From a bacterium (lineage in GTDB: Bacteria > ARS69), in assembly GCA_046330135.1 (NCBI GenBank), contig JAXLTI010000008.1:10302-74301 (forward strand): 64,000 nucleotides of DNA, in the 5' to 3' direction. Under the pieces are notes generated by a model, which searched no databases, had not been told where the DNA came from, and saw only the letters and a list, made by a program, of their open reading frames with translations. Position 1 is the stretch's first letter. Every line of letters starts with the position of its first letter. Shown piece by piece: positions 5,921 to 60,016 of this stretch. A program made the position numbers and the translations under genes.

Positions 5921-6064
5921 CGCCCGCGAGTCTACCGGATATCGCGCCGCCCGGGCGCGGTGCGTGGTGGTGCTTCTCGATGGATCGCCCGGGTTCCCGC
6001 CCTCGAAGTCCGCGCACATGACACGGATCGTCCGCAACCGGGGGGAGCGGGTCCCGCCGACGAA

Positions 6065-6092
6065 GAGGCCGGAACCACCAGGTCCCGGCCTC
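6065..6092. terminator. GC-rich hairpin (GAGGCCGG-N12-CCGGCCTC) in the spacer downstream of the FG-GAP gene
   Basis: Perfect 8-bp inverted repeat read directly from the sequence. There is no U-tract, as expected in a high-GC genome. Function unproven. Confidence 0.2.
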
Positions 6093-6224
6093 TTCCCACA
6101 ACCATCGCGCCATCACGATCTTCCGCGCCTCGCTGCAACCTCCGACCTGCCGCGAACTGACGCCCGGGGAGCCTGGTGCCGTCGGTGAGGCGCCCGGCCG
6201 TCGATCGCTTCCTGCGGACGCAGG

Positions 6225-39865: not shown

Positions 39866-39960
39866 GTCGGTCCTAGGTCGGGGCGCTCCGCGTCCCGTCG
39901 TCTGCGTGCCCGCCCGCCGGCGTTGCGCGCCGAACCGTCTTCCCGGAGAGGAGACCCTCC

Positions 39961-41112: not shown

Positions 41113-41124
41113 GAGAGCGAATCG

Positions 41125-42042: not shown

Positions 42043-42051
42043 GAGCCCATC

Positions 42052-43035: not shown

Positions 43036-43725
43036 CCCGGCGATCGCGCGACATCCGCACGCGCAGCCGTCGTCCAGCTCGCCGGCGGCGAGGCGCTCGA
43101 TGCGGGCGGCCGTGGTGGCGTCGAGCCGCCGGGCCGTGGCGTAGTCCTCGTAGTGGCTCAGATCGGAGCTCACCACGATCAGCGTCTCCGGCCCGCCCCA
43201 CAAGGCCTCGAGCGCCGCCGCCACCTCGTCCGGCCGGCCTTCGCCCACGAGCGCCGGCACGACCGCGAACTCCTCGAGCACGTGCTGAAGGAAGGGGAGC
43301 TGCACCTCCAGGCAGTGCTCGCGGGCGTGGGCGCGATCGTCGACGCTCACGAAGGGCAGCGCGGTCAGCGCGGACGTCGCGGCGTGATCCACGGGCACGT
43401 CGCCGAGCGGCGTGGCGAACGCGTCGTGGGAGGAGAGGGCCAGGCCGCGCACGAACGCGAAGTGCGTGGGCCCGAGCAGCACGACGCGCCGGATGACGTC
43501 GCGCGAGGCGGCCAGGCGAGCGTAGGCCGAAGCGGCGATGGGTCCGGAGTAGACGTAACCCGCGTGGGGCGCGATGAGCGCCTTCGGAGGCGCCGCCACG
43601 CCCACGTGCGCCTCGTGGCACGCGCCGGCGAGCAGCTCCGCCACGACGCGGCGCAGCTCTTCGCAGCTCGCGGGATAGAAGCTGCCCGCGACGGCAGGGG
43701 GTCTCGTGCGAGCCATCTGGGTCAT
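42916..43725 (-). CDS. Memo1-family protein (AmmeMemoRadiSam system protein B)
   Basis: AGSFYPA...LIAPHAGYVYSG...VVLLGPTH...REHCLEVQLPFLQ...IVVSSDLSHY...NSGDTAGSRDAVVGYGAW. ATG at 43725 (or 43716). The ORF-track start at 43818 is an extension. Confidence 0.85.
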   Translation of the reverse strand: MTQMARTRPPAVAGSFYPASCEELRRVVAELLAGACHEAHVGVAAPPKALIAPHAGYVYSGPIAASAYARLAASRDVIRRVVLLGPTHFAFVRGLALSSHDAFATPLGDVPVDHAATSALTALPFVSVDDRAHAREHCLEVQLPFLQHVLEEFAVVPALVGEGRPDEVAAALEALWGGPETLIVVSSDLSHYEDYATARRLDATTAARIERLAAGELDDGCACGCRAIAGLLVAAHRRGLASSTLDLRNSGDTAGSRDAVVGYGAWSLA

Positions 43726-43891
43726 CGCCGCGCGACAGCCTAGCAGATCGCCCCGCCGCGCTTCCAGACGCCGCGGCCTTCGGCTTTGATGACTTCGAGT
43801 CGCCCTCTGCGCCGTCAAAGCCCACCCCTTGGCCCGCGCCCGCCGCCGGGTCTATCTTGGTACGAGCCTCCGCAGCCCCGCGAGGACCTCG

Positions 43892-44974
43892 ATGGTCACC
43901 AGCATCGTCCCCACGAAGCACTGGCATGCGCTCCCCGACGGGCGCGTGCAATGCGACCTCTGCCCGCGCGGCTGCCGCCTGCACGAGGGACAGCGTGGCC
44001 TCTGCTTCGTGCGCGCTCGGCAAGACGACGCGATCGTCCTCACCACGTGGGGTCGCTCGAGCGGGTTCTGCGTGGATCCCATCGAGAAGAAGCCGCTGAA
44101 TCACTTCCTGCCCGGGACCGCCGTGCTGTCGTTCGGCACGGCCGGCTGCAATCTCGCCTGCAAGTTCTGCCAGAACTGGGACATCTCGAAGTCGCGCGAG
44201 ATCGACACGCTCGCGGACGGCGCCACGCCCGACGAGATCGCCGCCGCGGCCGTGCGCCTGGACTGCCGGAGCGTGGCCTTCACCTACAACGATCCCGTCG
44301 TGTTCCACGAATGGGCCATCGACGTGGCGCAGGCGTGCCGCACGCGCGGGCTGCGCACCGTCGCCGTGACCGCGGGCTACCAGAGCCCTGAGCCGCGCGC
44401 GGAGATGTACCGCTGGATCGACGCCGCGAACGTGGACCTGAAGGCGTTCACGGAGGACTTCTACTTCAAGGTCACGGGCGCGCACTTGCAACCCGTGCTC
44501 GAGACGCTCGAGTACCTGAGGCGAGAGACCGACGTCTGGCTGGAGATCACCACGCTCCTGATCCCCGGCCTGAACGACTCGGACGCGGAACTCGACGCGC
44601 TCGCCCGCTGGGTCGCCGAGAAGCTCGGAGTGGACGTGCCGCTCCATTTCACCGCGTTCCATCCGGACTGGAGGATGCTCGACGTCCCGTCCACGTCCCC
44701 GGCCGCGCTGACGCGCGCGCGGCGCCTCGCGCTCGCGAACGGGCTCCGCTACGTGTACACGGGGAACGTGCACGACGAGGAAGGCGGCAGCACCTTCTGT
44801 GCGAGCTGCGGTGCGAAGCTCATCGGGCGGGACTGGTATCACCTGACGGCCTGGAACCTGGACGGGGCCGGCCGCTGCTGCGCATGCGGCGCCGCCCTGC
44901 CGGGTGTCCTCGAGGCGCGCCCCGGGGGCTGGGGTCCGCGCCGGCAGCCGGTGAGGCTCGGCGGCGCCGAGTAG
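43892..44974 (+). CDS. AmmeMemoRadiSam-system radical SAM enzyme
   Basis: CNLACKFCQNW radical-SAM cluster motif. N-terminal CDLCPRGCRL...GLCFVR and C-terminal CASCGAKL...CCACGA Cys clusters typical of this family. ATG at 43892 with GAGGA SD. Divergent from the Memo gene across 166 bp. Confidence 0.85.
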   Translation: MVTSIVPTKHWHALPDGRVQCDLCPRGCRLHEGQRGLCFVRARQDDAIVLTTWGRSSGFCVDPIEKKPLNHFLPGTAVLSFGTAGCNLACKFCQNWDISKSREIDTLADGATPDEIAAAAVRLDCRSVAFTYNDPVVFHEWAIDVAQACRTRGLRTVAVTAGYQSPEPRAEMYRWIDAANVDLKAFTEDFYFKVTGAHLQPVLETLEYLRRETDVWLEITTLLIPGLNDSDAELDALARWVAEKLGVDVPLHFTAFHPDWRMLDVPSTSPAALTRARRLALANGLRYVYTGNVHDEEGGSTFCASCGAKLIGRDWYHLTAWNLDGAGRCCACGAALPGVLEARPGGWGPRRQPVRLGGAE

Positions 44975-45013
44975 GTCGCCTGCGCCGGCCTGTGCTAGGC
45001 TTCGCCGGTGAGC

Positions 45014-47800
45014 ATGGACGATCCGACGAGGTTCGGCGGGCCCCCCCCGGACAAGCGACACCGCCCCCGCCCCCGGCACCCGCTGGGCCCGCGGCCGTCG
45101 GATGCTCCGGGCGGCGACAGCCCCACCCTTCCCGCCCTGGGACCCGCGCTCCCGCCGGAGATCTTCGTCTCCGCCGCACCCGACGACGTCATCGGCAACT
45201 ACCGCCTCGTGGAGCGCATCGGCATGGGCGGCATGGGCGAGGTCTGGATCGCCGACCAGGTACGACCCGTCCGCCGGCGCGTCGCGCTGAAGCTGATCCG
45301 CTCGGGCATGAGCACCGGGCAGTTCATCGCGCGCTTCGAGGCCGAGCGGCAGGCGCTCGCCCTGATGGATCATCCGAACATCGCGAAGGTGCTCGACGCC
45401 GGCGCCACCGATCGCGGGCTCCCCTACTTCGTGATGGAGTACGTGCCGGGCGTCCCCATCACGCAGTACTGCGTGGAGAACGCGCTCGACCCGCGCGAGC
45501 GGCTGCGGCTCTTCGCGCAGGCGTGCGACGGCGTCCAGCACGCGCACGAGAAGGCGATCATCCACCGGGACATCAAGCCGTCGAACGTGCTCGTGACCAC
45601 GATCGACGGCCGGCCCGTGCCGAAGATCATCGACTTCGGCGTGGCCAAGGCGCTCGAGCAGCCGCTCACGGACACCGCGATGTACACGCAGGCGGGCGCG
45701 CTGGTCGGCACGCTCGAGTACATGAGCCCCGAGCAGCTGGACCTCTCGGGCAACGTCGATACGCGCACCGACGTCTACTCGCTCGGCGTCCTCCTCTACG
45801 AGCTGCTCGTGGGCGCGCTGCCCTTCGACGTGAAGGACATCCCCACGACCGGGCTCGACGAGTTCCGCCGCAAGGTCCGCGAGGACGAGCCCGTCCGTCC
45901 GAGCACGCGCGTGACGCGCCTGGGCGGGGCCGCGGCGGCCGGGGCGCGCGCGGAACAGGTGGCAGCCGCGGGATGGCGTCGCCTCCTGAAAGGCGAGCTC
46001 GACTGGATCGTGATGAAGGCGCTCGAGAAGGAGCGCGCGCGGCGGTACGGGACGCCGCGCGAGCTGGCGGCGGACATCGAGCGCTATCTGCACAACGAGC
46101 CGGTGATCGCCGCCCCGCCGGGCCACGTGTACCGCATGCGGAAGTTCGTGCGGCGCCATTGGGCGGGGGTAGCGCTCGCCTCGCTCGGCCTCGTCACCAT
46201 CCTGCTCACCGTGGGCGGGCTCTGGTACGGCCTCCAGCGCGCGCATCGCGCCGAAGCGGACGCCCAGCGCGAGGCCGCCAAGGCGAAGGCGGTGAACTCC
46301 TTCCTGCAGGACATGCTGGCGTCGGCGAGCCCGGAGCAAACGCAAGGCCGCGAGCTCACGGTGCGCGAGATGCTGGACGAGGCGGCGGCCCACGGTGACT
46401 CCTCCCTGGCGGGACAGTGGGACCTCCAGGCCGCGGTGCGCGCCACGATCGGCAACACGTACGAAGCGCTCGGGCTCTTCGACAAGGCGGCCGCCCACCT
46501 CGAGGCGGCCCTCGATCTCCGGAAGAAGCACCTGTCCCCGGACGATCGCGAAGTGGCGCAGAGCCTGCACGACCTCGGGAAGCTCCGCTGGGAGGCGAGC
46601 GATTTGCCGGGGGCGGAGAAGCTGATGGAGCAGGCCCTCGCGATCTACCGGCGCCATCCCGGCGACGCCGACCAGCAGATCGCGCTGTGTCTGAACGACC
46701 TCGGCGTGGTCTACCAGAGCAACGGCGACCTCGGCAAGGCGGAGACCGCCTTCCGGAGCGCGCTCGACACCCAGCGCAAGCTGCACCCCGGGGAGAGCAC
46801 GGATGTCACCGACGCGATGAACAACCTCGCGTGGGTGCTGCGCGGCGAAGGCCACGTCGACGAGGCCGAGCGGATCCTCCGCGACGCGCTGGCCACGAAC
46901 CGGAAGCTGCTCGGCGCGCGACACCCGTCCGTGCTCGCGTCCGAGGTGAACTTCGCCGCGGCGCTCCAGCAGCAGCGCGAGTACAAGGACGCGGAGTCCC
47001 TCTACCGCGAAGCCATCGACGGCATGCGCACCGTCCTCGGCTCCGACCACCCGAACACGCTGCGCGCGCAGACCGCGCTCGGCGAGATGTACCTGGATCT
47101 CGGTCGCGGCGACGACGCGGAGCCCGTGGTGAACGAGGCGCTGGCCAGCGCGGAGAAGACGCTCGGGCCGGATCACGCGGTCACGATCCGCCTCCTCGCC
47201 GACCTGGGTTGGGTGCATCGCGTGCGCGGCGATCTCGCGCAATCCGAGGCCGACTATCGCGAAGTGCTCGCCCGCCGCGCTCGCACGCTCGGCCCGGACA
47301 ACCCCGACACGATCCGCGCGCGCTGGCAGCTCGCGCGCGCGCTCGTGGATCGCGGTCGGTGCGCGGAGGGCGAGCGGCTGGCCCGCGAAGCGCTGGCCGC
47401 GAGCCGTCGCGCGACTCCGGCAGGACCGGAGAACACCTCGCAGAGCCTGCTCTTCCTCGGGACGGCGCTCCTCGGCCAGAAGAAGCCCGCGGACGCCGAG
47501 CGCGCGCTCCGCGAGTGCGTGGAGCTGCGCAGCACGCCGCCCGCGGCCGAGACCTGGGACACCGCGTACGCGCGGAACGCCCTCGGCGCGGCCCTGGCAG
47601 CGCAGGGCCGATTCGCGGAGGCGGAGTCGCTTCTCGTGGCGAGCGGCGAAGCGCTGGCGAAGCTGGCCGCGCCGCACGACCGGCTCCGCGAAGCGCTCTC
47701 CCGAGTCGTCGCCTACTACGAAACCCGGGAGGCCGCCGACCCCGAAGCCAGGTCGGCTCGTCGCTCCGCCCACTGGCGCGATCTCCTGGCCAAGCTCTGA
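45014..47800 (+). CDS. Ser/Thr protein kinase with TM segment and TPR repeats (third paralog, no adjacent sigma)
   Basis: GMGGMGEVWIA, VALKLIR, HRDIKPSNV, DFG, SPEQ. A TM helix (WAGVALASLGLVTILLTVGGLWY) is followed by TPRs. Starts 40 bp after the radical SAM gene. Confidence 0.8.
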   Translation: MDDPTRFGGPPPDKRHRPRPRHPLGPRPSDAPGGDSPTLPALGPALPPEIFVSAAPDDVIGNYRLVERIGMGGMGEVWIADQVRPVRRRVALKLIRSGMSTGQFIARFEAERQALALMDHPNIAKVLDAGATDRGLPYFVMEYVPGVPITQYCVENALDPRERLRLFAQACDGVQHAHEKAIIHRDIKPSNVLVTTIDGRPVPKIIDFGVAKALEQPLTDTAMYTQAGALVGTLEYMSPEQLDLSGNVDTRTDVYSLGVLLYELLVGALPFDVKDIPTTGLDEFRRKVREDEPVRPSTRVTRLGGAAAAGARAEQVAAAGWRRLLKGELDWIVMKALEKERARRYGTPRELAADIERYLHNEPVIAAPPGHVYRMRKFVRRHWAGVALASLGLVTILLTVGGLWYGLQRAHRAEADAQREAAKAKAVNSFLQDMLASASPEQTQGRELTVREMLDEAAAHGDSSLAGQWDLQAAVRATIGNTYEALGLFDKAAAHLEAALDLRKKHLSPDDREVAQSLHDLGKLRWEASDLPGAEKLMEQALAIYRRHPGDADQQIALCLNDLGVVYQSNGDLGKAETAFRSALDTQRKLHPGESTDVTDAMNNLAWVLRGEGHVDEAERILRDALATNRKLLGARHPSVLASEVNFAAALQQQREYKDAESLYREAIDGMRTVLGSDHPNTLRAQTALGEMYLDLGRGDDAEPVVNEALASAEKTLGPDHAVTIRLLADLGWVHRVRGDLAQSEADYREVLARRARTLGPDNPDTIRARWQLARALVDRGRCAEGERLAREALAASRRATPAGPENTSQSLLFLGTALLGQKKPADAERALRECVELRSTPPAAETWDTAYARNALGAALAAQGRFAEAESLLVASGEALAKLAAPHDRLREALSRVVAYYETREAADPEARSARRSAHWRDLLAKL

Positions 47801-47893
47801 GCACCTTGCGGCACCCGACGCCGTCGCGTTACTGTGGACACCGTCTCGGCGGTGCAGCCGCCGACCCCCTTCCTTCTCCCCGTCGAGGTCCTC

Positions 47894-48451
47894 ATGCGCC
47901 GACTCCTCCGCCTCGCACCCTGCCTCGCGTTCGTCCTCGCCGGGACGGCCCGCGCCGGCGTCGTCACGGTCCCTTACGACTTCCTGCCGCGGACCTGCCC
48001 GAACTACTTCCGGCCGCCTCACGAGACGGCGGTCGGGGATACCGTCCCCACGGCCATCCTCGGAACGGCCGACCTCGACGTCCGTATCCTGCGGCAGAGC
48101 TCGCTCGTGCTCATCGTGCCGGGCGGCGGCGGATTGCTCGGCGAGAGCACCACGCTCAAGCCCATCGGGTTCTTCTTCAAGGACGTCGCCCGGCCGGTGG
48201 ACGACCCCACGAACTGCAAGTGCACGGGCGAAGGCGCCGACGGCTACGAGGACCTCGTGGCGCTGTTCGACGCGGAGGATCTCGGGAAGGCGCTGAAGGA
48301 CGCGCACGACGGGGACCGCATCCCGGTCTGCATGGAGGGCGCCTTCGAGGACGAGACCAAGCTCCAGGGCTGCGATTGCATCTTCGTGCAGCTCGGGCCG
48401 CTCGCCGTCGACTCGGACACGTGGGGGCGCGTGAAGGCGACGTACCGGTAG
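47894..48451 (+). CDS. hypothetical secreted Cys-containing protein
   Basis: Signal peptide MRRLLRLAPCLAFVLAGTARAG. No family recognised. High GC3. Confidence 0.45.
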   Translation: MRRLLRLAPCLAFVLAGTARAGVVTVPYDFLPRTCPNYFRPPHETAVGDTVPTAILGTADLDVRILRQSSLVLIVPGGGGLLGESTTLKPIGFFFKDVARPVDDPTNCKCTGEGADGYEDLVALFDAEDLGKALKDAHDGDRIPVCMEGAFEDETKLQGCDCIFVQLGPLAVDSDTWGRVKATYR

Positions 48452-48461
48452 GAACCGCGGA

Positions 48462-49937
48462 TCAGCCCGGCACGTTCACGAACGCGCGCAGGGCGAGCAG
48501 CACCAGGAGCTGACCCGTCGCGAGCGGAAGGACGCCGGCCGCGTCGCGTGACGCGGCGCCGCCGGCCGCCGCCGCCGCGAGGGGCATCAGGAACATCCAG
48601 ACGCGGCCGGTCTCTCCGAGGATGGTTCCGGAGAGATCGAGCGCCACGACGCCCGCCAGCAGCGCGATCCCGAACGGGATCTCCACCGACGGCTTCGCCC
48701 GCCCGAACAGCTCCTTCAGCTCCCCCGGCACGCGGGCGAGCCAGGCGACCACGAGCGGCGGTCCCAGGAAGAGCGCGAAGTCCCAGAGGTTCCAGCGCAC
48801 CCACGTGGAGTAGTCGCGGTGGTGCACGAGCCCCTGCACCACCTGCGCCGCCCGGAAGCACTCGCGCGTGACGCTCGGCCAATCCAGCCCGCCCCAGGCC
48901 GCCGCGCCGGGCACGGCCGCGAAACCTGCGAGCGCGGCGATGGCGAGGCTGACGGTGCGGATCGGCGTGGGCATCGGCGCGCCGCGGCGCGCCGCCAGCA
49001 CCACCATGCCGGCGAACGCGATCCCCCAGGCGAGCAGGGCGGCGAACGTCGTGAGCGAGACGAGAACGGCCGCACCCGCGAAGAGCCCTGCGCCGAGCGC
49101 GCAGGCCGCCGCCCAGGGTCGGCTCGCGTAGCGCATCGCCTCCGTGAGGAACGCCGCCGACGTCAGCGTCAGCAAGAGCAGGAGATGGTCGGTCTCCGGA
49201 GTGAACAGGAGGAAGCTCGGCACCGTGCCCATGAGCAGCACCGCGGCCGCCACCGTGGCCGGGTCTCCGCGCCCGCCTGCGAGGACGATCAGCGGAAGGA
49301 CCGTGAGTGCCCCGATCGCGAGCAAGAGCCACCCCGCCACGAACGCTCCCGCGCGCTCCCCGTCCGATTGGCGGAGATTGCTCTCCGGCACGCCCCCGAG
49401 CCGGTCCGCGAGCGCGAGGATCCGTTCGGGCCGCCCGGCCTTCGACGCCCAGAGGTCCACCGCGTCGAAGAAGAGGACGCGCCCCGGCGGTTGCGAGGCG
49501 CCGTGGACGGGGAAGGTCCGCTGCAGCCTCGGGTACTCGCGCAGGAGCTGGCGCACCTCGCCGACGTCGCGGGCGATCCAATGATAGGTGGTGAACGAAG
49601 GATCGATCACGCGACGCGGGATGTTCGACAGGCCGCCGGGCTCGATCGCGGTCAACGTGACCATCTGCGCGAAGATCACCACGACCGCCGCCACGAGGAG
49701 CGGGAAGCGCGCGCGGTTCGGCCGTGCGCCCCACGCGCGACGGATCCCGCCGGCAACGAGCACGAGCAGGACGAAAAGCCCCACGACGAGGAGCAGCCCC
49801 GGCCAGGCCCCGAGCACGCGACGTCCCCATCGCCAGCTCTCCGGTCCGCGGATCGCCGGCCAGACGTCGAGGGCCAGAAGCGCCGACGTGGCCAGCCCGG
49901 CCAGCAGCGCGATCGCCGGCACGCGCGACGTCTTCAC
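48462..49937 (-). CDS. polytopic integral membrane protein (unknown function), 4th gene of the CHAT operon
   Basis: GTG at 49937 with perfect GGAGGAAG SD 7 nt upstream. The start overlaps the GT39 stop (GTGA). It has 10 or more TM helices with one large periplasmic loop. The ORF-track extends it to 51488 in an overlapping frame. Confidence 0.65.
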   Translation of the reverse strand: MKTSRVPAIALLAGLATSALLALDVWPAIRGPESWRWGRRVLGAWPGLLLVVGLFVLLVLVAGGIRRAWGARPNRARFPLLVAAVVVIFAQMVTLTAIEPGGLSNIPRRVIDPSFTTYHWIARDVGEVRQLLREYPRLQRTFPVHGASQPPGRVLFFDAVDLWASKAGRPERILALADRLGGVPESNLRQSDGERAGAFVAGWLLLAIGALTVLPLIVLAGGRGDPATVAAAVLLMGTVPSFLLFTPETDHLLLLLTLTSAAFLTEAMRYASRPWAAACALGAGLFAGAAVLVSLTTFAALLAWGIAFAGMVVLAARRGAPMPTPIRTVSLAIAALAGFAAVPGAAAWGGLDWPSVTRECFRAAQVVQGLVHHRDYSTWVRWNLWDFALFLGPPLVVAWLARVPGELKELFGRAKPSVEIPFGIALLAGVVALDLSGTILGETGRVWMFLMPLAAAAAGGAASRDAAGVLPLATGQLLVLLALRAFVNVPG

Positions 49938-51559
49938 TTGCGCTTCCTCCAGATCTCGACGCGCGGATGATCGAACACGCGGAAGAGCACCTCCGCCCCA
50001 TCGTCCTTCCATGACCATCGACCGAGCGCAGGGTAGCTCTTGAACTCGGCGACCTTCTCGAAGGCGAGCCGCCCGGCGTCGAGATCGCGGTAGAACGCGG
50101 CCTCCACCGGCCGGAGCTCCGGCGCGGCGGTGAACTCCGCGCGGTGCCCCTCCGAGAGCGCGAGCCAATCCGAGCGGTCGAGGACGTCCTGCAGGCGACG
50201 GCGGCGCTCGCTCTCCTCCAGATGCTCGTGGATCTGGTAGAAGCCGCGCCAGAGAATCTCGACGTTCATCGGCGGCCGCGTCAGGAGCGGGGTCGGCGAG
50301 CCGATCGGCGGGCCGTAGCCCGGCGGGTCCTCGATGCCCACGACCTCGCGCGGCCCCACGTGGTCGTCGAGCCAGCGCGCGGCGGCCACGCGCGCGTCGG
50401 GCGCGGCGTAGATCGCGGTGAAGGCCGCGCCCTGCAGGATCACCGCCGCGGAGACGGCGGCCGCCAGCGTGGCGCGCGCGGGCGGCGCCAGCCGAGCCGT
50501 CAGCGCGGCGAGCCCCTCCGCCGCGAGCACGGCGAGGGCGGGCAGGGCCGGAACGAGGAAGCGCACCGTCTTCAGGTGCGCCGCGAAGAGCAGAAGGAGA
50601 AGCGGCGCGGCCACGAGGAGCAGGCGCACGTCGCGCGCCGCGCGGCGCCGGAAGAGCGCCGCGAGCCCCACGAGCGCGAGCGCTTCGGGAAGAACGCCTG
50701 CCGCGTACGGCAGGAGCTTCCGCGCCTCGGTGAGCACCGGAACGTCGTGCGCGTAGGGCAGAGTCCAGTCGTGGAAGTCCCGCGAGAAGGCGCGGTGCAG
50801 GTTCCCGGCGAGGGTCGTGTGCTCGCCCGTGTCCGCGCCCGCGCTTCCTCCGAGAAGCAGCGTGGGATTCACCACGAAGACGACGGCGGCCGCGACCAGA
50901 GCGATCAGCGCGAGACGCGCGCCGCGTCCGACCCTCTCTCCCCACGCCGCGTGCGCGATCGGCAACGCGAGGACCGCGCCCGGCGCCTTCACGGACGTCG
51001 CGATCCCGAGGAGGAGACCCGCGCGCGCAGCCCGCCCCCACGTGGGCCGCTCCGCGAGTCGCTCCGCCCAGAGCATGCCCGCCGCGATCGCCGCCACGAG
51101 GAGAGACTCCACCGTGCCGAAGTGCCCCGCCTGCACGAGCGCCGGAAACCCCGCGACCATCGCCGCCGCCACGAGCGACGTGGCCGGCCCGAAGCGTCGC
51201 GCCCAGAGGCCGGTGAACACCACGGCGAGGGCCCCGGCAAGCGCAGAGATCCACCGGGCGAGAAGCGCGGTCGCCGCGAACTCGTCGCCGTAGGCGGGCG
51301 GGCCGGTCCCCGCCGCGACGTGGAGGAACAGCCTCCGCGCGAGGACCAAGAGCCAGAGCGGCAGGATCCCGTACGAGGTGATGCCGGGATCCGGCAGCCC
51401 GCCGCTCTCGAGGCTGCGCTCCAGTCGAATCGCCTTCGCGCAGACGAAGAGCCGCTCGTCGATGTGCAACGTCCAGGGAAGGCCCCACGCCAGCCCGCGC
51501 ACGCGGAGCGCGAGGCCGATCAGCGCGAGCGCGCCGAGGAAGAAGGCATGGCGTCGCAC
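49934..51559 (-). CDS. GT39/GT83-family (PMT/ArnT-like) polyprenyl-phosphate-sugar-dependent glycosyltransferase
   Basis: GTG at 51559 (VRRHAFFLGALALIGLALRVRGLAWGLPWTLHIDERLFVCAKA...), matching the N-terminal loop with D-E of PMT/ArnT-type enzymes. Multi-TM with a C-terminal soluble domain. Starts 1 nt after the dipeptidase stop. Confidence 0.7.
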   Translation of the reverse strand: MRRHAFFLGALALIGLALRVRGLAWGLPWTLHIDERLFVCAKAIRLERSLESGGLPDPGITSYGILPLWLLVLARRLFLHVAAGTGPPAYGDEFAATALLARWISALAGALAVVFTGLWARRFGPATSLVAAAMVAGFPALVQAGHFGTVESLLVAAIAAGMLWAERLAERPTWGRAARAGLLLGIATSVKAPGAVLALPIAHAAWGERVGRGARLALIALVAAAVVFVVNPTLLLGGSAGADTGEHTTLAGNLHRAFSRDFHDWTLPYAHDVPVLTEARKLLPYAAGVLPEALALVGLAALFRRRAARDVRLLLVAAPLLLLLFAAHLKTVRFLVPALPALAVLAAEGLAALTARLAPPARATLAAAVSAAVILQGAAFTAIYAAPDARVAAARWLDDHVGPREVVGIEDPPGYGPPIGSPTPLLTRPPMNVEILWRGFYQIHEHLEESERRRRLQDVLDRSDWLALSEGHRAEFTAAPELRPVEAAFYRDLDAGRLAFEKVAEFKSYPALGRWSWKDDGAEVLFRVFDHPRVEIWRKRK

Positions 51560-51560
51560 G

Positions 51561-52634
51561 TCATACCGGGGGAAGAGAGCGCGCAAGGAAGCGGATCCAG
51601 TTGCCGCCGAGGATGCCGTGGATCGCCTCGTCCGGGAAGGCGAGATCCGCGAGCGCGTCGGCGAGGCGCGGGAGGTCGGCGATCGTGTCGAGACCCACGG
51701 GCGCCGCCTCCGCACCGAAGCCGCCGTCGAAGTCGCTGCCGATCGCCACGACGTCCGCGGTGCCCGCGACCTGCGCCACGTGCTGGATGGCGTCCGCGAC
51801 CCGCGAGAGCGGCACGGCCGGCCGCCCGCGATCCGCCCAGCCTTCCACGAGGAGACGGTTGAAGGGGACGACCCCCATGACCCCGCCGCGTTCCGCAAGC
51901 CGGCGGATCATCTCGTCCGAGAGCTGCCGGTCCCCCGGGCAGAGCGCGCGCGGGTTCGAGTGCGACGCGATCACCGGGCCTTCGGACAGATCGAGCGCCT
52001 CGAAGAAGGACTCCTCGGCCGCGTGCGAGAGGTCGAGGATGAGACCGGCCTCGCCCAGCGCGGGCACGAGGCGCCGGCCTTCCGGCGTGAGCGGCCCCGG
52101 CGCGCCGGTTCCTCCCGCGTAGCGCGTCCGTCGCCACGCGAGCCCCACGATGCGCACGCCGCGCTCGAGCCACTCCGCCACGTCGTCGATCTCGCGGATG
52201 GGATCCGCGCCTTCCATGAGGGGAACGAGACCCACCGAGCCCGTGGCGCCGTCCTTCCACCCCTCGAGCACCGCCTCGAGATCCGCGCGGGTGCCGATCA
52301 GCCGGAAGCCGCTCTCGGCGTCCTCCGCGAGCCGGCGATAGAAGTCCATCTGGAGCGCGCCGAGCTGCGCGGCCTCCGCGGACGTGCCGTAGCTGACCGC
52401 GGACGGGTTCCCGCCCTCGATCCCCGCGGATTCCGGCGCGAGGAAGATCGTGGAGAAGACGACGCCCACGCGGCCCCGGCGCAGCTCCGGCAGCCCCACC
52501 ATGCACGCGCCGCGCCAGCGCTCGTGCGCCTTCTCCCCTTCGCGAGCGCGCGTCACGAGCGCGGAGTCGCGCGGGTCGCGGCCGAAGCAGAAGTGGTTGA
52601 ACGCGACGTCGATGTGTCCGTCGACGAGGATCAT
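51561..52634 (-). CDS. M19-family membrane dipeptidase (renal dipeptidase-like)
   Basis: MILVDGHIDVAFN..., SHSNPRALC and GSDFDGG metal-ligand motifs. Confidence 0.85.
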   Translation of the reverse strand: MILVDGHIDVAFNHFCFGRDPRDSALVTRAREGEKAHERWRGACMVGLPELRRGRVGVVFSTIFLAPESAGIEGGNPSAVSYGTSAEAAQLGALQMDFYRRLAEDAESGFRLIGTRADLEAVLEGWKDGATGSVGLVPLMEGADPIREIDDVAEWLERGVRIVGLAWRRTRYAGGTGAPGPLTPEGRRLVPALGEAGLILDLSHAAEESFFEALDLSEGPVIASHSNPRALCPGDRQLSDEMIRRLAERGGVMGVVPFNRLLVEGWADRGRPAVPLSRVADAIQHVAQVAGTADVVAIGSDFDGGFGAEAAPVGLDTIADLPRLADALADLAFPDEAIHGILGGNWIRFLARSLPPV

Positions 52635-52638
52635 GAGG

Positions 52639-55600
52639 TCATCGCCAGTCCCCGGCGGCCACGAAGGACGCCCACCGGAACGGATGCGGGTACTTGCCGC
52701 GCTCGCGCAGCGCCTTCAAGCACGCGAGGCTCGCCGCGCTGACCGCGCGATCCGTCGAGAGGCCGTGACCGAGTCGTGCGGCGTACAGCTCGCGGATCCA
52801 GCGCCGAGCGGACTCGTCTTCCACCGGCCAGAGGCTCAGAAGAAGCGTGCGCACCCCTGCCACGCGGAACGCGCGGCACAGCCCGATCACGCCTTCCCCG
52901 TCCACGATCTCCCCCGTTCCGCTGTCGCACGCGGAGAGCACGGCCCACTCGCAGCCGCGCAAGTCGAGCGACGCGATCTCCTCCGCGGTGAGGATACCGT
53001 CTTCCTCGCCGGGCGCAACCGAAGCGCGCACGTTCGCGCCCGCGAGAGCGAGGCCGGCGCGGAGCAGCGGGTTCGCGGCGAAGGCGTCGTCGCCCGGCGC
53101 GAGGACGAACCCGTGCGTGGCGAGGTGCACCACGCGACGCCCCCGCACGTTCTCCTTGAACGCGGCCTCGCTCGCAGCCGCGCCGGAGAGCCGCACGATG
53201 GACCCGGCGTCGCGGCGCAGCCAGCGTCGCCAGCCCCCGGCCGTGGACCACGCCTCCACGACCACGTCGCCTTCGCTCTGCGCGCCGGGGAGAGGATCGA
53301 AGCGGAGGCGCGCGAGGTCCGCCGCGCCCGGCGCCCCGCGGAGGGAAGCGATCTTCGCCGGCATCGCGGCGCGTGCGGCGACCCCGCCGACCGCGCCCCC
53401 GCCGGCGGCGTTCCCACCGCCCGCCGCGACCGCTCGGTCGAAGTTCGGCGCATCCACCACGAGTAGTCCGTGGCCCGGGTCGCCTTCGCTCGCGGCCGCG
53501 AAGAGGTCTCGCTCCGACCCCAGGTAGTGGAGCACTGGAATGCGCTCCACGAGGAACTCCCGCTCGCCGACCGGCAGGGCCGCGAAGTTCACGAGGTGCA
53601 CGGCGCCGTCGGGGACGAAGAAGACGCGCTCGACGTCGCCGACCGCCGCCTCGAGCGGATCCCACACCAGCTTGCGCAGCGCGACGCCTGCCGCGCGCTC
53701 CGCCGCGACGTTCGCCGTCGAGGGATCCAGCATGGAACGCTCCAGCTCGCGACTCCATCGATGCACCGCGGAGTCCACGTCGGCGCAGGCGCCGAGCGGG
53801 AGCGTGGCCGGCGTGCGCTCGCCCCCGCGCAACACGAAGGCCAGCAGCGAGCGCGTGCGCTGCGGCCGGTCGGCGAGCACGCGGTCGTACGACACGAAGC
53901 CCACGAGCGCGCTCCGCTCGGGCAACGCCGCCGCGACCTGGTCGAAGCCGCGCGCGAACGCCTCCCGCTCGTGGCGGAAAGGCGCGCTCTTCGCCGCCAG
54001 ATCGCGCTCCGCGCGCTCCTTCGCCAGCCGCGCTTCGTCCAGGGCGTGCGCGTCCGCCACGCCCTGGGAGCGGGAGAAGTCCCGGACGGCGAGTCGCGCG
54101 AGCTTCTCGCGCGCTGCGCGGAGCCGCTCGGCCAGCTCCGCGATCCGCGGATCGGACGACTCCACCACCGTGCGCTGGCGCGACGCGAGCTCGTCGAGCA
54201 CGAGCGCGCGGGAACGGATCACGGCGTCCCATGCGTCGCGCGCGGACGCCGGGTCCGCGCCCGCCGCCGCGATCGTGAGGGCCAGGCTCTCCCCCGACGC
54301 CCGCACCGCCTCGTAGCGCAGCGCCTGACGCTCGGGGAGCACGCGCGCGGTCAGCTCGAGGTGGCGGCGCCCCACGTCCTCGGCGCGGAGCGCGGTGGCG
54401 AACGCCGTGCGCGCGTCGCCGGCGCGGTACTTCGCCACGGCGAGGCTGGCGAGCACGGTGGCCACGTCCGGATGATCGCGGCCGAGCCACTTCTCCAGCA
54501 CGTTGACGGCCTCGGCGAGGTCGTCCCCGGCGGGCGCCGTCTGCCCCTCGTCGGAGAGCACTTCGCCGAGGCGCGCGAGCGCGAGCGCCGTGAAGGGGTT
54601 GTCGGCGCCGAGCTTCGAGCGCCGGATGGCCACGGCCCGCTCGAGGGACTTCCGCGCTTCATCGTGGCGGCCGAGGCGCTCCTGGACGGACGCGAGGTCG
54701 TACAGGCTGGACGCCACCTGCATGTCCTCGGGTCCGATGACCTTCTCCTGGATCGCGAGCGCGGCTTCCAGGTGCTGCCTCGCGTCGTCGAGGCGGCCCA
54801 ACTCTCCCTCCGCCGATCCCAGGTTCTGCATCCCGCGGGCCACGCGCGGGTGGTCGTGGCCGTAGGCCTTCTCCCAGATGCGCAACGCTCGCTCGAAGCC
54901 GGCCCGCGCGGTCTCGTAGTCCCCGGCGTCCAGGTCGATGGAGGCGAGCGCGTTCGCGGCGCTGCCGACCTCCGGGTTCTCGCTCCCCTGCTGCTTCTCC
55001 TGGAGGGCGAGCGATCGCTCCGCACACGCGCGCGCGGCGCCGAGATCGCCCGACAGCTCCAGCACGATCGCGAGATGGCTGTTCGCCTTCGCGACGTTCG
55101 CGCCGTCCGGACCCTCGGCCTTCTCGAAGATCGAACGCTCCCGCTCGTACGCCGCCCTCGCCTTCGCGTATTCCCCGAGATAGACGAGAGCGTGGCCCAC
55201 CCCGGCCAGCCCGGCCGCCACCTGCACGTGGTCCGGGCCGAGCAGCTTCTCGCGGATGGCCAGGGCCTTCTCCTGGAGCGCGAGCGAGCCCGCGAAGTCG
55301 TCCTGGTCGCGCAGCACGTTCGCGACGTTGCTCATCGCCAAGGCGACGCCGTCGCTCTCGTCGCCGTCGGTCTTCCGGAGGATCGCCTCGGCGCGCTCGA
55401 ACGTCTTGCGCGCGTCGGCGTAGTGACCGGTGCGGTGCTGGAGCTGCCCGTATCCGATCAGCGTCCGTCCGACCGCCGAGGACGCAGGACCGAGCTTCTT
55501 CTCCTGGATCGCGAGCGCGCGCTCGTAGTCCGCGCGCGAGGAGTCGAAGGCCGCGGAGAGTCGAAGGAGGGTGGCGAGATTGACGAGGCTCGCCGCCACG

Positions 55601-55953
55601 TCGGGATGGTCGGCGCCTTGGAGGCGCTCCCGGATCGCGACCGCGCGCTCGGCGTCGCGGCGCGCTTCGGGATCTTTCGTCTTCTCGAGCCGGGTGAGCG
55701 TCCGTACCAGCGCGTCGAGGGCGTCGGCGACGGCGAGCGAGTCCGCCCCCGGATGATCGCGTGCGGCGAGGACCTCCCGCGCCAGGGCCTCCGCCTCGCG
55801 GAGCTTGGAAGCGCGGAGAAGCGCGTCGACGTCCGCCGGCGTCCGCCCCGTAGCGGGTGACGGGGGTGCCGAGGGCGAAAGCGCCGCGAAGGCCGACGGC
55901 GGCCTCGGCCCCAGCGACAGGGCGAAGACGAGAAGGGGGATCCACCGGGACAT
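52639..55953 (-). CDS. secreted TPR-repeat protein with C-terminal CHAT (caspase-like) protease domain
   Basis: Signal peptide MSRWIPLLVFALSLGPRPPSAFA. Ten or more TPR units (e.g. YERALAIQEKKLGP..., LERAVAIRRSKLGADNP...). The CHAT domain has His in VVHLATHG and Cys in LSACDSG. Confidence 0.85.
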   Translation of the reverse strand: MSRWIPLLVFALSLGPRPPSAFAALSPSAPPSPATGRTPADVDALLRASKLREAEALAREVLAARDHPGADSLAVADALDALVRTLTRLEKTKDPEARRDAERAVAIRERLQGADHPDVAASLVNLATLLRLSAAFDSSRADYERALAIQEKKLGPASSAVGRTLIGYGQLQHRTGHYADARKTFERAEAILRKTDGDESDGVALAMSNVANVLRDQDDFAGSLALQEKALAIREKLLGPDHVQVAAGLAGVGHALVYLGEYAKARAAYERERSIFEKAEGPDGANVAKANSHLAIVLELSGDLGAARACAERSLALQEKQQGSENPEVGSAANALASIDLDAGDYETARAGFERALRIWEKAYGHDHPRVARGMQNLGSAEGELGRLDDARQHLEAALAIQEKVIGPEDMQVASSLYDLASVQERLGRHDEARKSLERAVAIRRSKLGADNPFTALALARLGEVLSDEGQTAPAGDDLAEAVNVLEKWLGRDHPDVATVLASLAVAKYRAGDARTAFATALRAEDVGRRHLELTARVLPERQALRYEAVRASGESLALTIAAAGADPASARDAWDAVIRSRALVLDELASRQRTVVESSDPRIAELAERLRAAREKLARLAVRDFSRSQGVADAHALDEARLAKERAERDLAAKSAPFRHEREAFARGFDQVAAALPERSALVGFVSYDRVLADRPQRTRSLLAFVLRGGERTPATLPLGACADVDSAVHRWSRELERSMLDPSTANVAAERAAGVALRKLVWDPLEAAVGDVERVFFVPDGAVHLVNFAALPVGEREFLVERIPVLHYLGSERDLFAAASEGDPGHGLLVVDAPNFDRAVAAGGGNAAGGGAVGGVAARAAMPAKIASLRGAPGAADLARLRFDPLPGAQSEGDVVVEAWSTAGGWRRWLRRDAGSIVRLSGAAASEAAFKENVRGRRVVHLATHGFVLAPGDDAFAANPLLRAGLALAGANVRASVAPGEEDGILTAEEIASLDLRGCEWAVLSACDSGTGEIVDGEGVIGLCRAFRVAGVRTLLLSLWPVEDESARRWIRELYAARLGHGLSTDRAVSAASLACLKALRERGKYPHPFRWASFVAAGDWR

Positions 55954-56072
55954 GGCCGACGATCCTACCAGAGGCGGACCGGAACGCCCGGAAGTCGTGA
56001 AAGGTCCGCGGGCGTAGCCAAACGGAGAGGCATCGGTCCCGATCCCGGCCCGAATCTCCCGGAGGTTGCCTC

Positions 56073-58496
56073 GTGACGCGCTCTCGCCTTCTCTTCTGGA
56101 CCCGTTCCGTGCGCCGCTGCCGCGGCGGCGTGCTGCTTCTCACCCTCGCCGCTTCGTGGATGGGCGGCGCGGCCCGGGCGGCCACGCTCAACTGGACCAA
56201 CGGCTCGGGTGGGAGCGCCGACGTGCCGACGAACTGGACCCCGAACGCGATTCCCGCCTCCACGGACCTCCTCCTCTTCACGCTGGGGAACTCGTATCCG
56301 GTCACGTTCACGTCGAACACGACCCAGTCCCACGAGATGCGCTTCCGCGCCGGCTCCGTGCAGCTGCTCTTCACCTCGCTGCACACCGTGGGAACGGCCA
56401 TCCAGTTCTCCGATCTCGCCCACGACACCTCGACGGCCACGATCACGGGCGGAACGCTCCGGTCCAACGGACAGGTCCTGATCGGTGTGGTCGCCACCAG
56501 CAAGGGCACGCTCAACCTGCAGACGGCCGGGGCGCTCCTCGAGATCCCGGGCACGGTCAACGACCTCAACGTGGGCGTGGTCGGTCTCGGCACCTTGCAT
56601 GCGCAGGTCGGCGGGCGCGTGCAGGTGGGAGACGACCTCCTGGTCGGGGCGCAGTCGGGCGGCGTGGGGCACGTGCTCGTGGACGGGCACCAGACCTCGC
56701 CGATCGTCGTCGGCTCGAGCCTCTACACCCTGGGAGGGGCCACGTCCGATGCCCGCATCGGCGACCTCGGCTACGGCGACATGATCGTCAGCAACTTCGG
56801 AATCGCGCACGTCGACGGGAGCGTCTACGTGGCGCCCACGGACCGGCCGCTCTTCGACGGGAACGGTTTCCTCACCGTCGGCGGCGCGGGCGGGCTGGCC
56901 GCCATGAGCGTGGGGCAGAACTTGTGGATCGGCGCCGGCGGCGGCGGCGCGGGCGGCATCGGGACCGTCAACGTCCTCGACAACGGCAACCTCGCGGTGA
57001 CCGGCACGACCACGCTCGGCACGAACGGGAACGCCAACGCGATCCTCCAGATCGCGTCCGGCGTGACGGGCGGCGTCTTCAGCACGGGCAGCTTCGTCTG
57101 GGACGACGACGCCACGCTCACGTTCACGGGCGGCACGCTCACCGTGGACGGCGGCACCTTCGATCCCGGCACGATTTCGCGCACGATCTCGGGCACCGTT
57201 CCGAACGCAACCACCGGGCCCGTCTTCATTCTCGAGAACGGCGCCACGGCCACGCTGCCGGCCACGCCGATCTCCCTGCACCTCGGCACCACCGGATTCG
57301 GGGCCGCGCGTGCCCTGACCGGCGCCGCGTGGACGCTGAACGGCGATCTGCAGCTCGGCGAGGTCGCGGGCGGCACGGGCGTCTTGACGCTCACGGGCGG
57401 CAGCCTGTCGGCGAGCTTCGTCAAGGTCGGCCTCGCCGGGAGCGGGCAGCTCGGCGTCACGCAGAACGGCGCGCTGACGGGCTCGTCCCTCTCGATCGCC
57501 GCGAACACCACGGGCACCGGCACGGTCAACGTCTCGGACACGGGGTCGCACATCACCGTGAACAGCGTCACGATCGGCCGCAACGTGGCCTCGCCGGCGC
57601 CGGTCAACACGCTGGACATCGCGAACCACGGCCTCGTCACGGCCAACGGGACCGTGACGGGCGGCACCGTCAACGCCAACGGCGGCCTGATCGTCCACTC
57701 GACCGGGAAGTTCACCACGCCGGGCGACATCTTCGACATGGGCGTGGTCGATCTCGAAGGCGGCGAGGTGGACGCCGACACCGTGAGCCTGGGCGTCTCC
57801 GGCCGGTTGGACGGAGCCGGAGCCGTCGTCGCCGACGTCGTGAACGGCGGCCAGGTGCGACCCGGCGCGTCCACGGGCACGGCGAAGCGGATCGCCATCT
57901 CCGGCCTCTATGCGCAGACCGCCGGGGGGTTCTACCGAGCGGGCCTGGGCAATCACGCGACGTCGGAGTGGGACACCGTCACGGTGACGGGCGCGGCGAC
58001 ACTGTCCGGCACGCTGGACATCACGCGTCTCGGGACGTTCACGCCCCATGTCGGCGACGTGTACCGCATCATGACGTTCGCGTCGCGGACGGGCACGTTC
58101 TCGACGGTCACGCTGGAAGGCGGACCGCTGCTCGGCTTCTCGGTCACGTACAACGCCACCTCCGTGGACGTGGTCGTGACGGGAGCCACGGGGGTCGACG
58201 GGCCTCTCGCGTCCGCGTTGCCCGGCTCGATCGAGCTCCTCGGCCGCCGCACGGCGGGCGGCTCCGAGATCGAGCTGGCGCTCCCGCGCGCGTCGAGCGT
58301 CCGTCTCTCGGTCTACGACGTGGCGGGGCGAGAGGTAGCGGTGCTGCGCGACGGGATCGTCCCGGCAGGGCACAACCGATATGACTTCGGACGCGGCGCG
58401 AGCGCGGTTCCGAGCGGCATCTACTTCGCCCGCGCGCGGGTCACCTCTCCGGACGGCTCGACCGTCCGCACCGCACGGGTTCCGGTCGTACGCTGA
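56073..58496 (+). CDS. secreted autotransporter-repeat-like adhesin with C-terminal Por/T9SS sorting domain
   Basis: GTG with GGAGG SD. Signal peptide. Many degenerate G-x-L-x-x-x-G repeats. CTD ...LSVYDVAGREVAVLRDG...GIYFARARVTSPDGSTVRTARVPVVR. Confidence 0.75.
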   Translation: MTRSRLLFWTRSVRRCRGGVLLLTLAASWMGGAARAATLNWTNGSGGSADVPTNWTPNAIPASTDLLLFTLGNSYPVTFTSNTTQSHEMRFRAGSVQLLFTSLHTVGTAIQFSDLAHDTSTATITGGTLRSNGQVLIGVVATSKGTLNLQTAGALLEIPGTVNDLNVGVVGLGTLHAQVGGRVQVGDDLLVGAQSGGVGHVLVDGHQTSPIVVGSSLYTLGGATSDARIGDLGYGDMIVSNFGIAHVDGSVYVAPTDRPLFDGNGFLTVGGAGGLAAMSVGQNLWIGAGGGGAGGIGTVNVLDNGNLAVTGTTTLGTNGNANAILQIASGVTGGVFSTGSFVWDDDATLTFTGGTLTVDGGTFDPGTISRTISGTVPNATTGPVFILENGATATLPATPISLHLGTTGFGAARALTGAAWTLNGDLQLGEVAGGTGVLTLTGGSLSASFVKVGLAGSGQLGVTQNGALTGSSLSIAANTTGTGTVNVSDTGSHITVNSVTIGRNVASPAPVNTLDIANHGLVTANGTVTGGTVNANGGLIVHSTGKFTTPGDIFDMGVVDLEGGEVDADTVSLGVSGRLDGAGAVVADVVNGGQVRPGASTGTAKRIAISGLYAQTAGGFYRAGLGNHATSEWDTVTVTGAATLSGTLDITRLGTFTPHVGDVYRIMTFASRTGTFSTVTLEGGPLLGFSVTYNATSVDVVVTGATGVDGPLASALPGSIELLGRRTAGGSEIELALPRASSVRLSVYDVAGREVAVLRDGIVPAGHNRYDFGRGASAVPSGIYFARARVTSPDGSTVRTARVPVVR

Positions 58497-58562: not shown

Positions 58563-59618
<1,056 letters not shown>

Positions 59619-59680
59619 GGAGCCTCCAGGCGGGAGAAGCGATGCGGCGCGTCGCGGCCGTCGCGACGTCGTCGCCGGGA

Positions 59681-60016
59681 TCACATCGAGATCTTCGCCA
59701 GCGCGTTCTTCATCTGCACGCCGTGCACGAGCGACGATCCGCCGCGGATCGCGTTCGCCACGTGGATCGCCTCGGTCATCTGCTCCAGATTCGAGCCCTT
59801 CTCGAGGCAGGCCTGCGTGTACGCGTCGATGCAGTAGGGGCACTGCACGGCCGACGCCACCGCGAGCGCGATGAGCGCCTTCTCGCGCTCGGTCAGCGCG
59901 CCCTCTTCGAACACCGCGCTGTAGTACGCCAGGAACTTCTTCCAGAGCTCCGGGCTTCCCTCGGCCATTTCCGGGAAGCGCGGGAGATCCTTGGGGTCGT
60001 AGTAGGTCTCCGTCAT
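59681..60016 (-). CDS. AhpD-like (carboxymuconolactone decarboxylase family) arsenosugar-biosynthesis-associated peroxidase-like protein
   Basis: CPYCID CxxC motif in an AhpD-fold-sized (111 aa) protein. GGAGGA SD. Lies 62 bp upstream of arsS on the same strand. Confidence 0.7.
   Translation of the reverse strand: MTETYYDPKDLPRFPEMAEGSPELWKKFLAYYSAVFEEGALTEREKALIALAVASAVQCPYCIDAYTQACLEKGSNLEQMTEAIHVANAIRGGSSLVHGVQMKNALAKISM

Follow-up and report, generated by a model that had tools for sequence, protein, structure and literature searches.

A conserved dipeptidase and predicted double GT-C glycosyltransferase gene block with a clade-limited TPR-CHAT gene in Candidatus Eiseniibacteriota

The window discussed here is a stretch of 64,000 nucleotides of contig JAXLTI010000008.1, which originates from a Candidatus Eiseniibacteriota metagenome-assembled genome (MAG) and has a GC content of about 72%. 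Between positions 48462 and 55953, the list of open reading frames (ORFs) and direct reading of the sequence place four consecutive minus-strand genes. They encode a tetratricopeptide repeat (TPR) protein with a CHAT protease domain, an M19-family dipeptidase, a polytopic membrane protein related to PMT-type glycosyltransferases (gene 3), and a second polytopic membrane protein (ORF4). The locus is probably a mosaic operon, although this is proposed with moderate confidence. A conserved and coupled pair of glycosyltransferases of the GT-C fold, gene 3 and ORF4, would glycosylate an acceptor in the cell envelope, a cytoplasmic M19 dipeptidase would be co-transcribed with them, and the TPR-CHAT gene would be a recent addition at the 5' end. 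The initial annotation of this stretch had instead suggested that a CHAT protease, a dipeptidase, a GT39 glycosyltransferase and a membrane partner are coupled in one new system. This suggestion was supported only in part, as the CHAT gene is limited to one clade and, in other phyla, members of the M19 subfamily are found among ordinary peptidase genes. Literature searches on Eisenbacteria, periplasmic CHAT proteins and ArsS/arsenosugars returned no paper describing this gene combination.

Conservation of the M19 and GT-C genes

The tight gene spacing reported in the initial annotation was confirmed by direct reading. The TGA stop codon of the CHAT gene is separated from the ATG of the M19 gene by CCTC (+4 nt), and the TGA of the M19 gene from the GTG of gene 3 by a single C (+1 nt). 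The TGA of gene 3 lies inside a GTGA shared with the GTG of ORF4, giving a 4-nt overlap (-4). The GTG of ORF4 is preceded by the Shine-Dalgarno sequence GGAGGA, located 8 nt upstream. The tight translational coupling of gene 3 and ORF4 suggests that both proteins would be produced in stoichiometric amounts.

For comparison, 13 distinct related loci, all from MAGs of one phylum and numbered with the prefix L, were compared by tblastn. Gene 3 and ORF4 are adjacent in all 12 loci holding both genes, and the 4-nt overlap is present in nine of these. The M19 gene is located directly upstream of gene 3 in 11 of 12 readable loci, eight of which have the +1 nt spacing. L010 contains the GT-C pair, and no M19 was found at its usual position, even at E=10. 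The junction geometry is kept at 45 to 75% protein identity between orthologous loci; because the same geometry recurs, the tight spacing is more than chance. By comparison, the genes outside the block vary by locus and include FIST/histidine kinase genes, an HMA ATPase, ABC-3/ZnuA genes, an ECF sigma factor and a Ser/Thr kinase. The outer synteny is thus eroded while the block is kept, and the block is therefore regarded as maintained, which is the standard argument for operon selection. It had been considered that the four genes might never be syntenic elsewhere. This is not the case for the M19 gene, gene 3 and ORF4, whose order is conserved across genomes, but the CHAT gene is absent from this arrangement outside the clade of the window.

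Gene 3 and ORF4 also share the same narrow distribution. Approximately 50 full-length orthologs of ORF4 with at least 42% identity were found, exclusively in MAGs labelled Candidatus Eiseniibacteriota, Gemmatimonadota or "bacterium". The family of gene 3 has the same size (about 50) and distribution, followed by an abrupt fall in identity from 53% to 31%. Because the junctions persist and the two families have identical narrow distributions, co-function is proposed for at least the GT-C pair.

The spacing could also be the result of genome compaction, in which case the M19 gene, the GT-C pair and the CHAT gene would share a transcript without any functional relationship. This explanation is unlikely. 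It accommodates L010 with its GT-C pair lacking M19, the M19 homologs of other phyla in unrelated housekeeping contexts, and a slot upstream of M19 that takes very different genes equally tightly, such as a sulfatase 4 nt from M19 in L004. The 4-nt overlap between gene 3 and ORF4 and the 1-nt gap between M19 and gene 3 nevertheless persist at the above identities amid reshuffled neighbours, and the identical, narrow distributions of the gene 3 and ORF4 families also speak against it. A shared transcript with no common function is plausible for M19 and CHAT, but unlikely for the GT-C pair.

The two GT-C proteins

Gene 3 scores above the Pfam cut-offs for PMT_2 (34.2 bits, cut-off 26.1) and PMT (30.8 bits, cut-off 22.7); both matches are valid yet marginal. 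Structure comparison with a high-confidence model showed the predicted protein to have the polytopic architecture of GT-C enzymes. Residues D34-E35 in the first periplasmic loop are invariant across 20 orthologs, and the C-terminal periplasmic domain (residues ~400-541) adopts a small alpha/beta fold in the model. No MIR domain was detected by Pfam, and there was no match to an NCBIfam equivalog. In a search against PDB sequences, the sole match was PsaK, by chance. The earlier assignment to GT39 therefore stands in part: the PMT/PMT_2 scores and the Asp-Glu pair in loop 1 are in agreement with it, but the MIR domain and an equivalog match are missing. The label is looser than claimed, and protein O-glycosylation is one among several possible activities.

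Two groups of characterised enzymes are useful for comparison. Protein mannosyltransferases such as yeast Pmt1-Pmt2 and Pmt4 or the actinobacterial Pmt act as dimers of two GT-C subunits, which provides an analogy for the coupled pair of gene 3 and ORF4. Like the GT39 PMTs, gene 3 exceeds the PMT cut-off and has the invariant Asp-Glu in loop 1. It is shorter, with 541 aa compared to ~700-750 aa in the solved yeast PMT chains, and unlike eukaryotic PMTs it has no MIR domain. ORF4, which would be the second subunit, is no paralog of the PMTs. The second group comprises ArnT (GT83) and the bacterial PMT_2 enzymes, with which gene 3 shares a score above the PMT_2 cut-off and an acidic residue at the start of periplasmic loop 1. 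By analogy, the expected donor of gene 3 would be a polyprenyl-phosphate sugar. Unlike ArnT, neither membrane protein matches any NCBIfam model, the ArnT equivalog included, and none of ArnA, ArnB, ArnC, ArnD or ArnE/F is present among the called neighbours of the related loci that were viewed. A further difference is that this locus has two dissimilar, translationally coupled GT-C genes.

ORF4, which is identical to the MAG protein U0167_17095, matches no Pfam family at E<=0.01 and no NCBIfam model, and a direct match to PMT_2 (PF13231) is absent. Structure comparison of a high-confidence model likewise revealed a predicted GT-C architecture, in which periplasmic loop 1 begins with an acidic residue. 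In an alignment with 19 homologs this residue, D24, is nearly invariant and directly follows transmembrane (TM) helix 1, presumably the position at which GT-C enzymes hold their catalytic acidic residue. The family is further characterised by the motifs VHGxSQPPGR, TPxTDH and SGxILGETGRxWMF. When the ORF4 profile was searched against 1.84 billion cluster representatives, 2998 relatives were found at E<=1e-3 and 395 at E<=1e-30. Ten distant relatives were scanned, two of which reach the PMT_2 cut-off (31.2 and 28.5 bits); membership of ORF4 in the PMT_2 clan would thus be transitive only, via such distant homologs. One distant relative has an additional match, to the C-terminal end of the YfhO model, and another has an N-terminal PA14 carbohydrate-binding domain. 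The gene of another distant homolog, with 32% identity, immediately precedes a YfhO gene in a glycan cluster that also contains PMT_2, GT2 and GT4 genes. Examples of ORF4-like family members are P0367 (1308 aa), P0282 (710 aa) and a member encoded within the stretch 835-4685 of L006. Based on its modelled fold, ORF4 is a GT-C glycosyltransferase of a large family (~3000 clusters) without its own Pfam model. It had earlier been described as a dedicated membrane partner, but it appears to be a glycosyltransferase itself. Gene 3 and ORF4 were also considered as recent paralogs; this was rejected, as profile-profile comparison with hhalign gave a probability of 5%.

Characterised GT-C enzymes use polyprenyl-phosphate sugar chemistry. 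By analogy, the GT-C pair would act on the periplasmic side of the inner membrane, taking sugars from polyprenyl-phosphate-linked donors. The sugars would probably be added in two successive steps or by a heteromeric complex. Candidate acceptors in the envelope are a glycolipid of the lipid A/lipopolysaccharide type, a glycan or a protein. This mechanism is proposed because of the established GT-C chemistry, the folds of both proteins and the conserved acidic residues in loop 1.

The M19 dipeptidase

The M19 protein matches PF01244 over its full length (2.8e-60; 204.6 bits, cut-off 26), confirming the earlier family assignment. All metal-binding and catalytic motifs are kept: GH7ID9, ME141G, DLSH204, SH225SN and SD301FD303G. 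From family knowledge and an alignment with 2i5g, we take these to correspond to the ligands of DPEP1, namely the HxD motif, the bridging Glu, two His and the catalytic Asp. Hydropathy analysis revealed no signal peptide, TM helix or other hydrophobic segment. The protein is most likely an active cytoplasmic zinc hydrolase, as judged from its intact active-site motifs. Solved M19 structures in the PDB are distant relatives (E ~1e-19). The full-length PF01244 match and the motifs are shared with renal dipeptidase DPEP1, Streptomyces Sco3058 and GliJ, but unlike characterised M19 dipeptidases the protein has neither a membrane anchor nor a signal peptide. To our knowledge, adjacency to two GT-C genes has not been reported for any characterised M19 dipeptidase.

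Unlike gene 3 and ORF4, the M19 protein has thousands of homologs, including proteins with 53-55% identity in Chloroflexota (Thermoflexus, Anaerolineae). In the two Chloroflexota loci viewed, the M19 gene is located beside M42/M20 peptidase genes and ordinary metabolic genes, with no PMT-type GT-C nearby. Most simply, the M19 protein would be a general cytoplasmic dipeptidase whose gene was fixed as the leading gene of the GT-C operon within this phylum, where it would be co-transcribed with the GT-C pair. It may be tied to the glycosyltransferases through regulation or metabolism rather than through their mechanism.

The TPR-CHAT protein

The CHAT domain was validated by Pfam with a nearly complete match (PF12770, 1.3e-62; 212.4 bits, cut-off 24), which covers residues 755-1102 of the protein and positions 3-289 of the 289-position profile. 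It is preceded by a putative Sec signal peptide (residues 1-23), a TPR region (~70-520) with eight TPR_12 stretches in Pfam, and a helical linker. As stated in the initial annotation, the His/Cys dyad is intact: HLATHG at 943 (H947) and SACDS at 1007 (C1009). Both motifs are also kept in the CHAT ortholog of L015. The N-terminus MSRWIPLLVFALSLGPRPPSAFA, with A as the next residue, consists of MSR, an 11-residue hydrophobic core (WIPLLVFALSL) and GPRPPSAFA ahead of the presumed cleavage site. Read by eye, it resembles a Sec signal peptide that would be cleaved at an AxA site, which is consistent with the earlier call of a secreted protein. A comparison of the C-terminal half with PDB sequences gave no match at E<0.01.

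DdvA of Myxococcus xanthus is a periplasmic TPR-CHAT anti-sigma factor and the only characterised extracytoplasmic TPR-CHAT protein (PMC11506125). The CHAT protein of the window resembles DdvA in its predicted extracytoplasmic TPR-CHAT architecture and its His-Cys dyad (PMC11506125). The zinc-binding anti-sigma domain, which lies in the cytoplasm at the N-terminus of DdvA, and the TM helix of DdvA (PMC11506125) are both missing in the window protein; no anti-sigma domain was found in it by Pfam. Unlike in DdvA, just three residues precede the hydrophobic segment, which resembles a cleavable signal peptide. A further difference from DdvA is that there is no adjacent ECF sigma factor gene, the neighbours being M19 and a secreted-type 807-aa protein.

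The order of TPR and CHAT domains is also that of Csx29 from the type III-E CRISPR system (Craspase). Csx29 is cytoplasmic and associated with Cas7-11, whereas the window protein has a putative signal peptide and no cas neighbours. Its identified neighbours are M19, GT-C, ArsS and Ser/Thr kinase genes, and no association with Cas7-11 or a type III-E locus is seen. A defence island was likewise rejected, since PADLOC, run on the four proteins together with the 807-aa protein next to them, matched no defence-system model and gave just a generic TPR hit.

Clade-limited occurrence of the CHAT gene

Of the 12 related loci with a readable slot upstream of M19, ten lack the CHAT gene, and these ten span the phylum. 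It was found beside M19 only in the window, L018 and L015. In L018, the CHAT protein has 91% and the M19 protein 95.5% identity to those of the window, and the CHAT-M19 spacing is +4 nt. The L015 CHAT protein has 63% identity over 700 aa, and its gene overlaps M19 by 4 nt (-4), followed by gene 3 and ORF4. A metagenome scan with the CHAT half of the protein returned five loci, among which L018 is informative on linkage and L019 represents an unlinked homolog. The L019 homolog has 41% identity, and no match to M19 or gene 3 was found on its contig, where ~2.7 kb of downstream sequence is available.

In a neighbour-joining tree of concatenated gene 3 and ORF4 proteins (936 ungapped columns), the window, L015 and L017 form one clade with 100% bootstrap. 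The L017 contig ends before the slot upstream of M19, which leaves the CHAT state of this locus unreadable. The sister clade consists of L004, L005, L007 and L013, while L002 and L003 are basal, and loci with an adjacent arsS-type radical S-adenosylmethionine (SAM) gene (ArsS) occur in both positions. Since the CHAT gene is absent from ten of 12 readable loci and limited to the clade of the window, it is not a conserved member of the unit.

Other genes occupy the slot in the remaining loci. ArsS is found at -4 or +4 nt from M19 in L002 and L003, and 91-152 nt away in L005, L007 and L013. In L004, where the sulfatase occupies the slot, ArsS lies upstream on the same strand, separated by opposite-strand genes. 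L008 has a gene for a 648-aa protein, preceded by an arylsulfotransferase gene, and in L001 and L009 divergently oriented genes are found upstream of M19. The ArsS gene of the window is on the same strand as M19 and 5.9 kb upstream, with the plus-strand gene of the 807-aa protein and the CHAT gene in between. It is paired with a gene for an AhpD/CMD-like protein (CMD), and such a CMD-ArsS pair is also present in L003, L004 and L005. The upstream CMD/ArsS genes are located at 58563-60016 (-) in the window, 6209-7258 in L002, 5881-7262 in L003, 3111-4486 in L004 and 5744-7119 in L005. This pattern suggests an ancestral five-gene operon, CMD-ArsS-M19-GT-ORF4, that was disrupted by insertion of CHAT in the window. 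The simplest history, as read from these gene orders, would be an insertion of CHAT together with the 807-aa gene between CMD-ArsS and M19 in the ancestor of the window clade.

Two further explanations give CHAT or ArsS a different weight. According to the first, all four proteins form one envelope-processing module, in which CHAT cleaves or matures proteins glycosylated by the GT-C pair or a toxin, and M19 recycles the peptides. In line with such a module, the CHAT-M19 junction measures +4, +4 and -4 nt in the three genomes, whose CHAT proteins are as little as 63% identical, and the catalytic dyad is intact. With its plausible signal peptide, CHAT could meet the periplasm-facing active sites of the GT-C pair, and DdvA is a precedent for a periplasmic TPR-CHAT protein (PMC11506125). 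However, ten other loci with the GT-C pair have ArsS, a sulfatase or unrelated genes in place of CHAT, the CHAT loci are a single derived clade, and the L019 homolog has no M19 or gene 3 match on its contig. In addition, the apparently cytoplasmic M19 would be in the wrong compartment for periplasmic peptides unless these are imported. Taken together, a four-protein module is decidedly unlikely.

The second explanation takes CMD-ArsS-M19-GT-C-GT-C as the ancestral unit and CHAT as an irrelevant insertion. ArsS would produce a 5'-deoxyadenosyl-derived intermediate of the (arseno)sugar type, M19 would process it as a hydrolase of the amidohydrolase superfamily, and the GT-C proteins would install it on an acceptor in the membrane or envelope. 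The matches to TIGR04167 and TIGR04169 exceed the curated cut-offs, and ArsS abuts M19 in the basal loci L002 and L003, is found within 152 nt of it in L005, L007 and L013, and remains upstream of it, on the M19 strand, in the window and L004. We know of no enzymes assigned to the steps after ArsS in arsenosugar biosynthesis (adenine removal, glycosidation), which also counts in favour of this pathway. Conversely, ArsS was not detected within the available flanks of L001, L008, L009 and L010, and in the window and L004 the opposite-strand genes between ArsS and M19 mean that the two are not co-transcribed there. The M19 subfamily is found beside other peptidases in Chloroflexota (53-55% identity), and the literature search gave no paper tying ArsS to M19 or GT-C genes. 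No ArsM was seen, though no search aimed at one was made. The pathway is therefore given little credence and considered highly unlikely. A related idea is that CMD-ArsS, M19 and the GT-C pair are remnants of one ancestral pathway that puts a 5'-deoxyadenosyl-derived head group, for instance of the arsenosugar type, on an envelope lipid or glycan by way of polyprenyl-phosphate chemistry, with the exported CHAT protease recruited later to the same transcript in the window clade. It is scarcely probable, but if true, an arsenosugar-type pathway would supply the missing late steps of arsenosugar/arsenolipid biosynthesis.

Proposed role of the operon

The preferred reading remains a mosaic operon in which the GT-C pair glycosylates the envelope. 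In the window organism, CHAT would be co-expressed with the glycosylation genes without being an obligate component of the module. Judging from gene spacing, CHAT, M19, gene 3 and ORF4 are probably co-transcribed from the 119-bp divergent region upstream of CHAT, which is the only non-coding gap able to hold a promoter for this unit. A scan of 47500-56300 for sigma-70 consensus promoters found none, although such a consensus scan is uninformative for this phylum. The intrinsic-terminator scan of the same region gave five weak matches, all within genes and near the shuffled expectation.

Several points weigh against this reading. The GT-C fold by itself says nothing about the substrate, and acceptor, donor and activity are predicted from sequences and models. 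Export of the CHAT protein depends on a signal peptide called by eye alone. As the comparison set is restricted to MAGs of one phylum, gene order that was simply inherited, and not selected, could account for part of the conservation. The conserved +1-nt junction between M19 and gene 3 suggests that M19 is more than a passenger. Finally, the coupling of CHAT is tight (+4/-4 nt) in all three carriers down to 63% identity, which is compatible with functional recruitment.

The locus is best described as a lineage-specific envelope-glycosylation operon of known families, and not as a new four-part system. If this is true, its value is mainly in cataloguing, with a dipeptidase and double-GT-C operon probably shaping the cell envelope in the uncultured soil phylum Eiseniibacteriota. 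It would carry greater weight only if the CHAT or the ArsS linkage is functional. The locus also calls for caution, as tight coupling of 1-4 nt in one genome failed to predict a conserved partnership for CHAT.

Gene layout and neighbouring genes

The features of the locus and its surroundings are listed in Table 1. The start of ArsS at 59618 was picked by homolog length. Several long minus-strand ORFs of 950-1826 aa (42827-48307, 48462-51488 and 39658-42510) are antisense or out of frame to the real genes and rich in Arg, Ala, Gly and Pro, as is typical of shadow ORFs at ~72% GC. Two of them were considered as genes and rejected. The 1826-aa ORF at 42827-48307 (-) is such a shadow ORF, and the 1008-aa ORF at 48462-51488 (-) is a high-GC shadow extension, as the alignment with 19 homologs places the start of ORF4 at the GTG at 49937.

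Table 1. Predicted genes and intergenic region of the operon and its neighbourhood in the window.
Feature	Positions	Strand	Evidence
ABC-3 (ZnuB-like) permease	42052-43035	+	
AmmeMemoRadiSam-system radical SAM enzyme	43829-44974	+	TIGR04337, 634 bits
Ser/Thr kinase fused to TPR_10/TPR_12 repeats, 930 aa, convergent to the operon	45008-47800	+	
Small gene without family assignment, ~185 aa, convergent to and directly downstream of ORF4	47834-48451	+	
ORF4, predicted second GT-C-fold glycosyltransferase, polytopic, 491 aa, GTG start	48462-49937	-	
Gene 3, predicted GT-C-fold glycosyltransferase, PMT_2/ArnT/PMT clan, 541 aa, GTG start	49934-51559	-	
M19-family binuclear-zinc dipeptidase, 357 aa	51561-52634	-	PF01244
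TPR-CHAT protein, putatively exported, 1104 aa	52639-55953	-	Pfam CHAT and TPR_12
Divergent intergenic region, 119 bp, between the CHAT start and the plus-strand 807-aa gene	55954-56072		
Secreted-type protein, 807 aa, divergent from CHAT	56073-58496	+	N-terminal signal-like segment
ArsS-type radical SAM gene	58563-59618	-	TIGR04167, 419 bits (cut-off 300)
AhpD/CMD-like partner of ArsS, 111 aa	59681-60016	-	TIGR04169, 188 bits (cut-off 120); Pfam CMD

The 807-aa protein has no match in Pfam, NCBIfam or PADLOC. By eye, its C-terminal ~80 residues resemble FlgD_ig/Por_Secre_tail sorting domains, which are present on many secreted proteins of related loci, for example those encoded at 3848-4591 and 4625-7264 of L009. 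Homologs of the 930-aa Ser/Thr kinase are encoded near the block in L008 (11574-15508) and L003 (16537-18790), and the kinase and the CHAT protein have TPRs of the same Pfam types.

Enzymes acting on sulfo groups recur in the variable slot beside the block. In L004, the sulfatase is encoded at 5929-7293 (+), in L008 the arylsulfotransferase (ASST) at 4128-5573 (+), and in L001 a Sulfotransfer_5 protein at 5526-6269 (-). The glycoconjugate may thus be sulfated, or the recurrence may be a coincidence.

The small gene downstream of ORF4 is also called in L025 (1696-2253, -), an independent assembly of the same organism. In L017, a relative with 70% identity, a 184-aa gene at 3946-4500 (-) occupies the matching position; the likeness is by position alone. 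ABC-3/ZnuA genes are found downstream of the block in L001, L003, L005, L007 and L013, and HMA P-type ATPase genes in L001 and L002.

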